IMG/VR virus record: IMGVR_UViG_2579778894_000006
Direction: 5' to 3' (one strand)
Length of the DNA: 6,175 nt
Origin: a virus
Lineage: Duplodnaviria; Heunggongvirae; Uroviricota; Caudoviricetes
Under the pieces are notes generated by a model that searched no databases, was not told the origin of the DNA, and was given only the letters and a program-made list of their open reading frames with translations. This document shows positions 456 through 2,325 of the stretch, piece after piece (position 1 is the first letter of the stretch; each line of letters starts with the position of its first letter). The translations under genes and the position numbers were made by a program.

Positions 456-529
456 CCATCTACATCACTGAGCTTGTAACAGGCCTGCTGGTAATCGCAG
501 GCCTTTTTATTTGGGGGAGAGGGAAGTGA
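452..529 (+). CDS. Possible 25-codon hydrophobic small ORF (MTIYITELVTGLLVIAGLFIWGRGK) that overlaps the terminator hairpin
   Basis: Its ATG overlaps the ren stop as ATGA (452-455) and its TGA overlaps the GTG start of the next gene as GTGA (526-529). No ribosome-binding site of its own; it may only reflect the terminator sequence. Confidence 0.2.
   Translation: MTIYITELVTGLLVIAGLFIWGRGK
481..512 (+). terminator. Rho-independent terminator, tR2-like
   Basis: Perfect 8-bp stem AGGCCTGC (481-488) / GCAGGCCT (497-504), 8-nt loop, then T-tract TTTTATTT (505-512). It lies directly downstream of ren, where lambda tR2 sits. Confidence 0.65.
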
Positions 530-804
530 ACGATAGCTACCGACAGTTTGAAAACTGGTGGTCAAAAGACAAAAGCCAGTTTACAGAAGACGATGAATTA
601 AAAGAGTTTACCTGGGTGATATGGCAGGCATCACGAGCAGCTATTGAACTGGATATCGACTGGCCCGAATCGAATGACGACCTTTGGAAAGATGGTGAAG
701 AAGGTGCTTATGCGATGGGTTATGAGGATGGGCGTGACAAAACGGTAATTGCAGTAATGAAAGCCATCAGGGCCGCAGGAATCAAAGAAAAGAATTTCGA
801 TTAA
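526..804 (+). CDS. Hypothetical phage protein, 92 aa, acidic and Trp-rich
   Basis: ORF-track frame 511-804. GTG at 526 is preceded by GGGGGAGAGGG (the same RBS-like sequence lambda uses for ninB); the TTG at 511 has no RBS. No motif recognised. Confidence 0.55.
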   Translation: MNDSYRQFENWWSKDKSQFTEDDELKEFTWVIWQASRAAIELDIDWPESNDDLWKDGEEGAYAMGYEDGRDKTVIAVMKAIRAAGIKEKNFD

Positions 805-935
805 GCAAATATCACTTCAATAAATCGCTTTTAAGGCATCACAATCGCTCTGTGGTGAGGTAAGCACGTGCAAGGCAGCCGATAAGCAGCGAGAATGAAA
901 AATGCGTCAGAATGCGTTTGAGGAGGTTTTAAGAA

Positions 936-1151
936 ATGAGTACGATAGCTGAGCTTGTCAGGGCTAATTTTCGTGAAGAGTTGGTGCGTTGGTATCGGTA
1001 TCGTTCATCGTCCAGTTTGCCGCTTGATGAGTTGTATGAGCATTCACCTGCCGCACGACGCTATCCGCGTGACCGTGTTCTTCGACGGTTGTTCAAACTC
1101 AACAATGAGTTTCAGCGCAACAGAATTATCCGGAGTCTGGATTTTAAGTGA
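936..1151 (+). CDS. Hypothetical phage protein, 71 aa, basic
   Basis: ATG at 936 with strong RBS GAGGAGG 9 nt upstream; stop at 1149-1151. No recognisable motif. Confidence 0.55.
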   Translation: MSTIAELVRANFREELVRWYRYRSSSSLPLDELYEHSPAARRYPRDRVLRRLFKLNNEFQRNRIIRSLDFK

Positions 1152-1161
1152 AGGAGTGAGC

Positions 1162-1398
1162 ATGAGCGACCTATCATTAACCCAGCCAAAGCTAAAAGAA
1201 TGTCCGTTTTGCGGCGGTAATGCTCGTCTGTGGGTTGAGGCCGGAATAAATATTGATGTGTGGGGCTATGCAGAATGTGACCTCTGTGAAGCCAGGGGGG
1301 CATGGGCACCATCAGTTGCTGCGGCGGCTGAAAAATGGAACCGGAGAGCAGGAGATGAAGCAAACCTTTCTGCTTCGCAACGAAGCAATCAGAAATAA
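1162..1398 (+). CDS. Lar-family restriction alleviation protein, 78 aa
   Basis: ATG at 1162 with AAGGAG 5 nt upstream. Product has CPFCGG…C..C…EKWNRR, the pattern of Lar/RalR proteins (Rac prophage RalR has KPCPFCG…ERWNKR). The 955 TTG extension in the ORF track has no RBS. The 3' tail overlaps ninB by 44 nt in another frame. Confidence 0.7.
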   Translation: MSDLSLTQPKLKECPFCGGNARLWVEAGINIDVWGYAECDLCEARGAWAPSVAAAAEKWNRRAGDEANLSASQRSNQK

Positions 1399-1801
1399 CG
1401 CCATAGACGCCATTCTCTCACTACCCATCGACGACAAGTCACCCCACGAAGTCCACGTTAAAGAACCCAGGCGCAGCAAAGCGCAGAATGACCGTATGTG
1501 GCCGATGCTGAACGATGTTTCGCGTCAGGTGCTATGGCATGGTCAACGGCTGGCGCCGGAAGACTGGAAAGACCTGTTCACTGCCCTGTGGCTTAAGACC
1601 AAAAAACTGGAGCAACGAAGTGTGCCTGGTATCGACGGTGGCGTTGTCATGCTTGGCGTGCGTACCAGCAAAATGCGGAAGGCCAGCATGACTGAGCTTA
1701 TCGAAATCATGTTCTGGTTCGGCTCAGAGCGCAACGTGCGGTGGAGTGATGACTCCTGGCGAGAGTATGAATGGTCACAACGAAAAGGGAGAGCTGCATG
1801 A
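1355..1801 (+). CDS. ninB: NinB recombination protein (Orf family), 148 aa
   Basis: Product MKQTFLLRNEAIRNNAID…NDVSRQVLWHG…KMRKASMTELIEIM…WSQRKGRAA aligns along its length with lambda NinB (…GDVSRQVEWHG…KARWGDRAA). ATG at 1355 is preceded by GGAGAG/GGAG. Stop overlaps the next start as ATGA. Confidence 0.9.
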   Translation: MKQTFLLRNEAIRNNAIDAILSLPIDDKSPHEVHVKEPRRSKAQNDRMWPMLNDVSRQVLWHGQRLAPEDWKDLFTALWLKTKKLEQRSVPGIDGGVVMLGVRTSKMRKASMTELIEIMFWFGSERNVRWSDDSWREYEWSQRKGRAA

Positions 1802-2325
1802 CTATCAAATCAAATACGCCATCACACGACAAGGACTGCTGGCAAACGCCGCTTTGGCTTTTTGATGCACTGGATATTGAGTTTGGATTCTGGCTGGATT
1901 CAGCTGCGAGCGACAAAAATGCTCTGTGCGCTCACTGGCTAACTGAGGCCGACGACGCGCTAAATTCTGAGTGGATAAGCCACGGTGCAATCTGGAATAA
2001 CCCACCGTACAGCAATATCAGGCCGTGGGTGGAAAAAGCCGCTGAGCAGTGCATACAACAGCGACAGACGGTAGTGATGCTTGTGCCAGAGGATATGTCA
2101 GTCGGATGGTTCAGCAAGGCTCTGGAGAGTGTCGACGAAGTTCGCATTATCACTGATGGACGGATTAATTTTATCGAACCATCGACAGGGCTGGAGAAGA
2201 AGGGAAACAGCAAAGGCTCCATGCTGCTGATTTGGCGACCGTTCATCAGTCCTCGACGAATGTTTACTACTGTATCCAAAGCGGCATTGATGGCGATCGG
2301 GCAGGGCGTCAGGAGGGCGGCATGA
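1798..2325 (+). CDS. Phage N6-adenine DNA methyltransferase (small Dam-like phage MTase family), 175 aa
   Basis: Contains the catalytic NPPY motif (…[14 protein letters not shown]…) and a conserved CWQTP segment near the N-terminus. ATG at 1798 overlaps the ninB stop (ATGA) with AAGGGAG upstream. No restriction endonuclease partner is present, so it is an orphan methyltransferase. Confidence 0.8.

Follow-up and report, generated by a model that had tools for sequence, protein, structure and literature searches.

The nin region of phage lambda follows the order ren-tR2-ninB-ninC-ninD-ninE, and exchange at gene boundaries is the classical model for mosaicism in lambdoid phages such as HK97, HK022 and HK620. 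Lambda Ral is the functional counterpart of Lar of the Rac prophage and is unrelated to it in sequence. The Rac protein is the sole Lar-family member studied, and two activities are ascribed to it, those of a restriction alleviator and of a DNase toxin; under the name Lar it relieves type I (EcoKI) restriction and stimulates modification (King and Murray 1995, cited in PMC4041452), and as RalR it has DNase activity and RalA as antitoxin RNA (PMC4041452). The phage 'mini-Dam' family PF05869/TIGR01712 (HP1 and T1 Dam relatives) includes M.EcoVT2Dam, which is listed as GATC-specific in a REBASE-based table (PMC6602927) and whose cloning paper is cited in PMC7556043; the latter source regards what phage Dam enzymes do as not yet understood.

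The DNA analysed here, a stretch of 6,175 nt referred to as the window, carries genes of these families between ren and ninE. The region is already catalogued and consists of ordinary accessory genes of Stx-type lambdoid phages; it is not new. At least 80% of positions 456-2520 is found in 472 of 5,426 complete E. coli genomes and in 106 phage records. All five proteins that were looked up are exact database entries, those of Lar, the DUF7301 protein and the methyltransferase each being found on at least about 1,000 contigs.

Comparison with lambda, Stx phages and phage L

The six open reading frames from the 92-aa gene to ninE agree with the RefSeq gene calls in E. coli F8704-2, at identical coordinates. 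The preliminary description of the window was thus correct in all its gene coordinates, and it had also identified the genes rightly, as a Lar-family gene, an orphan N6-adenine methyltransferase gene and two uncharacterised small genes.

Table 1. Features of the left part of the nin region in the window.
Feature	Position	Strand	Description
ninA-like ORF	452-529	+	25 codons, hydrophobic, MTIYITELVTGLLVIAGLFIWGRGK; spans the tR2 hairpin
tR2-type intrinsic terminator	481-510	+	8-bp G+C-rich stem (481-504), then a T run
92-aa protein	526-804	+	GTG start; acidic, pI 4.4, 6 Trp; Phage_phiTE_015 (PF26207 / phrog_343)
ninB start relic	800-812	+	13 nt, ATTAAGCAAATAT here, ATGAAGCAAATAT where the phiTE_015 gene abuts ninB (prophages)
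Non-coding spacer	813-935	+	conserved in Stx phages; AGGAGG ribosome-binding site (921-926) ahead of DUF7301
71-aa protein	936-1151	+	basic, pI 10.8; DUF7301 (PF23975 / phrog_1785); predicted helical hairpin
Lar-family C4 zinc-ribbon protein	1162-1398	+	78 aa; Cys 14, 17, 39, 42; EKWNRR motif
NinB/Orf recombination mediator	1355-1801	+	164 bits; start region is a recurrent cassette boundary
Orphan phage N6-adenine methyltransferase	1798-2325	+	175 aa; PF05869 / TIGR01712; ATGA overlaps with ninB and ninE
NinE	2322-2504	+	142 bits

Homology to lambda is limited to 94-527 and 2329-2549, where the flanks are 95-97% identical. The first segment, with the tR2 hairpin inside it, is 97.5% identical to lambda ren-tR2 and ends 2 nt ahead of the position of the lambda ninB ATG; the second begins within ninE. 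The gene order does differ from that of lambda as had been described, with 528-2328 standing in for lambda ninB-ninC-ninD. Compared with lambda there are three extra small genes before ninB, dam takes the place of ninC and ninD, and the NinB allele is only 44% identical to lambda NinB. The exchanges lie at gene boundaries, as in the mosaic-boundary model. The ninA-like ORF is listed as a hypothetical CDS in AU6Stx1 and as ninA in records of HK620 and P22-like phages; at its ATG it shares ATGA with the ren stop, and at its own stop it shares GTGA with the GTG start of the 92-aa gene. A repeat scan of 400-2600 picked up nothing but the terminator hairpin and short matches due to chance, and the only match in an Rfam scan for RNA elements was a sub-threshold miRNA at 2911-2978. 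Further downstream, at 5268-5915, there is an HNH/AP2 gene of homing-endonuclease type, missing from most contexts that carry the same dam gene.

Gene content and order are those of the Stx phages VT2-Sakai (orf29-orf33), 933W (ST933Wp31-34) and AU6Stx1 (AU6Stx1_290-340) at 98-99% nucleotide identity (VT2-Sakai 98.3% over 452-2509, 933W 98.1%, AU6Stx1 99.0%), and E. coli F8704-2 reaches 99.8%. The three phages likewise have a 44-nt overlap of the lar gene with ninB and ATGA coupling of ninB, dam and ninE. The differences are few: a G7 frameshift truncates Lar in 933W, VT2-Sakai has another replication module upstream with orf28 in place of ren, and in older Stx-phage records DUF7301 is unannotated or a longer Lar ORF (119-120 aa) is called.

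A more distant arrangement is found in the Salmonella phages L and ST64T (orf90-orf69-orf86-orf98-ninB; the ORF notes of the phage L record refer to ST64T). Here ninB is 90% identical to that of the window, orf69 is a DUF7301 member with 45% identity to the window protein and orf86 a phiTE_015 relative with 31%. Unlike the window these phages lack Lar and Dam, and the small genes come in another order.

Probable assembly of the block at the ninB start

In all likelihood the block is a mosaic of known Stx-phage accessory genes, cassettes that assort independently and are joined at the ninB start, rather than a dedicated counter-defence unit. Positions 452-2509 would correspond to the usual left-hand portion of the nin region in Stx-converting and related lambdoid phages, made up of presumably non-essential accessory genes. 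The lambda-type ren-tR2-ninA segment appears to end at 527 and to be followed by the phiTE_015-family gene, the 13-nt ninB start relic and an inserted cassette with DUF7301 and Lar (813-1353). A ninB-dam pair would then replace lambda ninB-ninC-ninD up to ninE.

These units are found in different combinations. F451-type phages lack 525-921, Lambda_2G7a has tR2-ninB-dam without any of the three small genes, and loci L009-L012 have phiTE_015-ninB-dam without DUF7301 or Lar. Dam occurs without Lar, DUF7301 occurs without Lar, and the 92-aa gene can be present or absent. The relic would mark a former position of ninB behind the phiTE_015 gene: window 622-812 aligns to 4106-4296 of L009, where the ninB ATG is at 4284, and the TAA with which the 92-aa gene ends arises from a G-to-T change within the relic. 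The spacer that follows has no Rfam match, and folding of 805-935 is no better than that of shuffled sequence (z = 0.2).

The overlap of lar and ninB covers 1355-1398 in different frames, exactly the 44 nt given in the preliminary description, and residues 65-78 of Lar are a 14-residue tail read from the 5' end of ninB. The same overlap and the same ASQRSNQK end are found in phiTE_015 homologs (P0012, P0014, P0018, P0022, P0023 and P0027) and in orf98 of phage L/ST64T, which lies directly upstream of ninB and is unrelated to Lar. The tail also ends the Lar protein of locus L101 (41% identical); in locus L100 the Lar protein (43% identical) ends otherwise, its gene overlapping another ninB allele by 29 nt. 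Whatever gene lies upstream of ninB would lack a stop codon and run on into the ninB sequence out of frame, and for this reason Lar ends in ...EANLSASQRSNQK. The suggestion that the overlap is a recombination junction is borne out by the three unrelated upstream genes with a common tail and by the relic, and from these sequence comparisons the ninB start as a cassette-exchange joint is well supported. A lesser reading, and an improbable one, takes the 5' end of ninB for a site under selection for docking and translational coupling, where any upstream cargo acquires the same C-terminal tail.

The genes of the block are chained by stop/start overlaps (ATGA, GTGA and the 44 nt of lar and ninB). 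Because they lie downstream of the tR2 terminator, their transcription from pR would, by analogy with lambda, require N-mediated antitermination.

The methyltransferase

The methyltransferase matches PF05869 with 218 bits and TIGR01712 with 263.6 bits (cut-off 97.05), the latter over all model positions (1-165 of 165). The catalytic NPPY motif is at residues 68-71, and an AdoMet-binding motif of the FxLDxAA type, FWLDSAAS, begins at residue 31. A PDB sequence search gave no match. The enzyme differs from M.EcoVT2Dam (NP_050531.1) by two substitutions only (173 of 175 residues identical, 98.9%). Since that enzyme is listed as GATC-specific the motif is effectively known, and the window protein, being essentially M.EcoVT2Dam by sequence, should methylate GATC and so duplicate the host Dam. 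It is an orphan: its neighbours are NinB and NinE, no restriction endonuclease gene is adjacent to it in the window, the same dam gene is found in many contexts without a nuclease gene, and its best PADLOC matches are orphan-methyltransferase models. Identity with the 16S rRNA methyltransferase M.EcoPA8orf6770P was rejected, as that enzyme is an MT-A70 (DPPW) protein from gp5 with the partner genes gp6 and gp7 (PMC10810198) and the window enzyme is an NPPY protein of PF05869.

With this motif the methyltransferase could not protect against type I enzymes; GATC methylation repeats that of the host Dam and is not directed at type I sites. An anti-restriction role is possible for it. The enzyme may instead serve phage DNA metabolism or lysogeny control, a reading that we regard as rather unlikely. 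By keeping phage DNA fully GATC-methylated during rapid replication or recombination it could stop MutH from cutting Red/NinB heteroduplexes, a connection with mismatch repair that we draw from Dam/MutH biology, or it could supplement the host Dam. Consistent with such a role, dam is translationally coupled to ninB (ATGA at 1798-1801) and lies among the recombination genes ninB and ninG, it is found at 95% identity or more in 244 phage records, about twice the number carrying Lar, and GATC occurs in the window 8 times against 23.4 +/- 4.5, a three-fold depletion. The Phi24B copy was detected in lysogen cultures and changes in expression upon induction (PMC3342100), and host Dam is needed for stable 933W lysogeny (cited in PMC3342100). 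On the other hand, phage Dam also blocks GATC-cutting, methylation-sensitive nucleases, so that the roles are not exclusive, and the function of phage Dam is still given as unclear in PMC7556043.

Lar, the small proteins and counter-defence

The Lar protein is above the cut-offs of PF14354 (41.3 bits, cut-off 28.6) and TIGR03655 (62.3 bits, cut-off 39.6). It shares with Rac Lar/RalR the small size, the C4 zinc ribbon and the C-terminal motif E-x-W-N-[RK]-R, its four cysteines and EKWNRR aligning with the cysteines (CPFCG...CxxC core) and ERWNKR of RalR. The match to Rac Lar/RalR is at subfamily level only, and the ninB-derived tail is a further difference from the Rac protein. A PDB sequence search gave only a marginal similarity to the eL43 zinc ribbon. 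A word-indexed homolog search retrieved relatives at 89% identity or more only, and distant relatives were fetched by a Lar+RalR pattern scan. The long Lar ORF of the 933W/O157 annotation (119-147 aa, with its start at 955 or 1036) was not accepted, since it runs over the conserved DUF7301 frame; the 78-aa form is preceded by a separate GGAG ribosome-binding site and contains the Lar domain from residue 10 on. The gene contains a G6 tract at 1295-1300 that is prone to frameshifting, and G7 variants are seen. Judged by family homology only, Lar may counteract type I (EcoKI-type) restriction and promote modification, and an anti-restriction role for it is plausible.

The two small proteins were assigned to families and to nothing beyond them. 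Profile searches, which had been proposed for both, gave Phage_phiTE_015 for the 92-aa protein (phrog_343, E = 5.5e-29; the PF26207 label is precomputed for its exact-match cluster and for homologs) and DUF7301 for the 71-aa protein (PF23975, 91.4 bits, gathering threshold 27), neither with a function label. The phiTE_015 family comprises 613 clusters at 50% identity in a profile search of its alignment against 1.84 billion representatives, and PHROG and Pfam scans of 38 distant relatives gave no functional label and no informative domain fusion. In DUF7301 the block YPRDRVLRRL is invariant. Foldseek searches with an AF2 model of the 92-aa protein (pLDDT 67) gave a best E-value of 8.4 and no fold match; the DUF7301 model (pLDDT 75) gave 2.4 in PDB and 2.8 in BFVD, with no match at E < 1. 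Neither protein matched PADLOC, NCBIfam, PHROGs of known function or an informative Pfam family, and with models of moderate quality no likeness to Ocr/ArdA-type anti-defence or DNA-mimic proteins was found in sequence or fold. The idea that they are further anti-defence factors thus gained nothing from the profile and fold searches. A literature search found no mentions of DUF7301, PF23975, PF26207 or phiTE_015.

The preliminary description had read the block as a counter-defence module, with Lar disarming type I restriction, the methyltransferase shielding the phage DNA and the two small proteins possibly acting with them. The Lar-family and orphan-methyltransferase assignments in this proposal stand, and DUF7301, Lar, NinB and Dam occur together in all 80 loci with this NinB allele. 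Within the Stx lineage this linkage is genuine, and common descent need not be its only cause; the genes could have been selected together. Across lambdoid phages, however, the components assort independently, and in 73 distant Lar loci the neighbours include DUF7301 in no case, Dam in one and phiTE_015 in two. Two divergent lineages (L100 and L101) have the phiTE_015 gene directly ahead of Lar, which hints at some non-random association, and in one distant locus (L103) a Dam-family enzyme is next to Lar. The 92-aa protein is strongly acidic, like DNA-mimic anti-restriction proteins, but the small proteins have no match in function, fold or defence searches. A frameshift interrupts Lar in 933W and, counted over all copies, in 6 of 73 (about 8%) with the other genes intact, the RalR equivalog model is not reached, and GATC methylation is irrelevant to type I recognition sites. 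A dedicated module is accordingly improbable. The proposal is partly supported: anti-restriction can plausibly be assigned to Lar and possibly to Dam as well, and a concerted module would go beyond this evidence.

It is very improbable that Lar acts like Rac RalR as a small non-specific DNase toxin, possibly in a type I toxin-antitoxin pair, instead of as a restriction alleviator: the NCBIfam name of the Rac protein is now 'endodeoxyribonuclease toxin RalR', its DNase activity and RalA antitoxin RNA are described (PMC4041452) and the four cysteines and C-terminal motif are common to both, but identity is only 36%, the RalR equivalog NF007260 gives 27.6 bits against a cut-off of 113, and Lar lies in the lytic early pR/nin operon and not beside rcbA/recT as in Rac, where RalR is next to recET. 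In the whole window there is also no RalA homolog and no complementarity to the Lar mRNA of 11 nt or more; matches to RalA are 11-nt chance matches at most, the longest Lar-mRNA complement is 10 nt and Rfam gives none. Equally doubtful is a novel anti-restriction or anti-defence activity of the 92-aa protein together with Lar, for instance as a DNA or protein mimic, a reading suggested by a large, uncharacterised family that recurs in the same early-operon slot and by its place directly upstream of Lar in two lineages with Lar proteins 40-43% identical.

The preferred reading, a cassette mosaic, makes the block a routine, annotated part of Stx-phage genomes with a methyltransferase motif already on record, and its significance is limited to that extent. 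It cautions against taking adjacent "Lar" and "Dam" labels for a functional counter-defence module. It also illustrates, at the level of single bases, the assembly of lambdoid nin regions by cassette exchange at the ninB start, which explains both the common C-terminal tail of unrelated proteins and the discordant length calls for Lar. The abundant, uncharacterised phiTE_015 and DUF7301 families and the frameshift-prone lar gene are of interest as early genes of Stx phages, which bear on induction and toxin release.

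Gene layout and distribution

The window corresponds to the ren-to-ninG segment of a lambdoid Stx-type phage. Its identity to the Stx1 phage AU6Stx1 is 99.0% over 94-6175 and to 933W 98.1% over 94-2399, and shorter stretches match the E. coli O39:NM F8704-2 prophage (456-2520, 99.8%) and VT2-Sakai (452-2509, 98.3%), the latter despite its different replication genes. The gene coordinates obtained by ORF listing agree exactly with the RefSeq annotation and bear out the genes named in the preliminary description, as well as its 44-nt overlap of Lar and ninB. Its list did not include a ninA-like hydrophobic ORF, which spans the tR2 hairpin and shares an ATGA junction with the ren stop and a GTGA junction with the 92-aa gene's start. 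By analogy with lambda, transcription of the block would be N-dependent, via tR2.

Features of the window, with positions and basis
Feature	Position	Strand	Basis or remark
ren	165-455		ORF listing, RefSeq
ninA-like ORF, 25 codons	452-529
tR2 equivalent, hairpin and T run	481-504		inside stretch 97.5% identical to lambda
92-aa gene, GTG start	526-804		ORF listing, RefSeq
ninB-start relic	800-812
71-aa gene	936-1151		ORF listing, RefSeq
78-aa gene (Lar)	1162-1398		ORF listing, RefSeq
G6 tract in Lar	1295-1300
ninB	1355-1801		ORF listing, RefSeq
175-aa methyltransferase	1798-2325		ORF listing, RefSeq
ninE	2322-2504		ORF listing, RefSeq
Low-GC island	2601-5267		GC 0.34 vs 0.49 on left
590-aa ORF	3008-4780	minus	RefSeq 'hypothetical protein'; phrog_9230
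TTTCTA tandem array	5096-5154		9.8 copies (TRF)
HNH_3 + AP2-domain endonuclease	5268-5915
Lambda ninF/ninG-boundary homology	5336-5377		42 nt kept

Of 5,426 complete E. coli genomes, 472 carry at least 80% of 456-2520, as do 106 phage records. All five window proteins looked up have exact entries in the public protein collection; the exact Lar, DUF7301 and methyltransferase proteins are each found on at least about 1,000 contigs and the exact 92-aa variant on 71. The block 526-2325 is already known in sequence and annotation, with no novelty at the gene level.

The low-GC island, between ninE and the endonuclease gene, is found in 251 of the 5,426 genomes. Its 590-aa ORF has an N-terminus rich in Ser, Thr and Asn and gave no match in Pfam, NCBIfam, PADLOC or PDB sequences. 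The island with this ORF is arguably a moron of more interest than the 526-2325 block. The hexamer array, some 320 nt 5' of the ORF start on the strand of that ORF, varies in copy number, with 8 perfect units in the window, 4 in E. coli F8704-2 and 6 in AU6Stx1. The homing-type endonuclease gene is situated just 5' of ninG and overlaps the ninG start.

The proposed counter-defence module

Lar, the methyltransferase and the two small genes had been proposed to form a counter-defence module. The assignments to the Lar family and to the orphan methyltransferases hold. The methyltransferase is a full-length PF05869/TIGR01712 match (263.6 bits, cut-off 97) with an NPPY motif, and its top PADLOC matches are orphan-methyltransferase models. 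It is 98.9% identical to VT2-Sakai NP_050531, which is M.EcoVT2Dam (cloning originally described by Radlinska and Bujnicki in 2001, as cited by PMC7556043), with specificity given as GATC in PMC6602927. Judging by near-identity to this characterised enzyme, the window protein most likely methylates GATC. Such methylation is redundant with host Dam and unable to mask type I sites, which argues against the module; moreover, PMC7556043 notes that the function of phage Dam enzymes has yet to be clarified, and the Phi24B copy is tied to lysogen physiology (PMC3342100). GATC is about three-fold depleted in the window, although the phage itself encodes a GATC methyltransferase: the window has 8 sites vs 23.4 +/- 4.5 in dinucleotide-preserving shuffles, none of which was equally low, and 526-2325 has a single site, at 2295.

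The 78-aa protein is above the thresholds of PF14354 (41.3 vs 28.6 bits) and TIGR03655 (62.3 vs 39.6) but below the RalR equivalog cut-off (27.6 vs 113). It is 36% identical to RalR/Lar of the K-12 Rac prophage, with four cysteines and an E-x-W-N-[RK]-R motif in common. The only studied member of the family has been described in two ways, as a protein that alleviates restriction and as a DNase toxin paired with an sRNA antitoxin (PMC4041452), which weighs against the module; no RalA-like element was found in the window. At the family level, Lar may relieve type I restriction. The G6 tract reads G7 in 6 of 73 copies, those of 933W and five IMG/VR contigs, so that Lar is cut short at 56 aa but the remaining genes are intact, a further point against the module; another copy is frameshifted in a different way. 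Either the tract is prone to slippage or it marks a decaying gene.

Profile searches placed both small proteins in families but gave no function. The 92-aa protein (phrog_343, labelled PF26207 Phage_phiTE_015) is strongly acidic (pI 4.4), a point in favour of the module; its family is large (613 clusters at 50% identity), and nearly every member among the matches listed is a stand-alone protein, roughly 50-160 aa long, with no functional annotation on any of them. The 71-aa protein belongs to DUF7301, a small family from enterobacteria in which a YPRDRVLRRL block is invariant. The AlphaFold models were of moderate quality (pLDDT 67 and 75, respectively) and gave no Foldseek match with E < 1 in PDB or BFVD, and the literature search found no paper mentioning either family.

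DUF7301, Lar, NinB and Dam occur together in all 80 closest loci, and a phiTE_015 gene is immediately 5' of Lar in two divergent lineages. However, the Lar clade of the window is nearly invariant and, with 119 phage records at no less than 80% identity, confined to Stx-type phages of E. coli, so the constancy of its neighbours is hardly informative about function. The components assort independently across other lambdoid phages, and within 2.5-kb flanks of 73 distant Lar-family loci DUF7301 was found at none, a Dam-family enzyme at one and phiTE_015 at two. The evidence for a joint module is mixed and on balance weak, and the proposal is only partly supported. The single distant Dam-Lar pairing is in a metagenomic phage contig (L103:1755-2689), where the methyltransferase (34% identical) is immediately 5' of the Lar homolog (39% identical).

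The ninB start as a cassette joint

Lambda homology stops at 527, 2 nt short of the lambda ninB ATG, and restarts at 2329, within ninE. Every intermediate arrangement of the block is represented in related phages: tR2-ninB-dam in Lambda_2G7a, tR2-DUF7301-Lar-ninB-dam in Stx2a_F451 (without 525-921), x-phiTE_015-ninB-dam in four prophages (L009-L012) and DUF4752-DUF7301-phiTE_015-orf98-ninB-ninD-ninE in Salmonella phage L / ST64T.

In the four prophages phiTE_015 overlaps ninB by 44 nt and its protein ends in ...NFDEANIHTSQRSNQK; other phiTE_015 homologs end in ...NFDEANIHASQRSNQK. The unrelated orf98 of phage L also overlaps ninB by 44 nt (C-terminus ...ASQRSNQK), and the Lar of the window ends in ...GDEANLSASQRSNQK. 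Two divergent lambdoid contigs (L100:2181-3265 and L101:2205-2713) have a phiTE_015-family gene directly 5' of a 40-43%-identical Lar. Both retain the Lar-ninB overlap, with the ninB ribosome-binding site and ATG within the Lar R-A-G-D-E codons. In L101 the Lar (41% identical) ends in ...EANIPASQRSNQK and ninB is recognisable only over its first ~16 codons; in L100 the Lar (43%) overlaps a different, complete ninB allele (36% identical) by 29 nt and its tail differs.

The same tail on different upstream genes overlapping ninB indicates that the 14 C-terminal residues of Lar are the first ninB codons in another frame, and that the ninB start is a recurrent cassette joint. This supports the recombination junction suggested earlier for Lar/ninB, and it can be extended to the end of the 92-aa gene, where ATTAAGCAAATAT aligns to the ninB start of prophage L009, ATGAAGCAAATAT, and a G-to-T change yields the TAA stop. 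This stretch is a relic of an earlier ninB joint.

Mosaicism at gene boundaries is the classical picture of lambdoid phages, and the ninB joint fits it. The region is a catalogued mosaic of accessory early genes, to which the common tail derived from ninB and the relic of its start add small new descriptive points.
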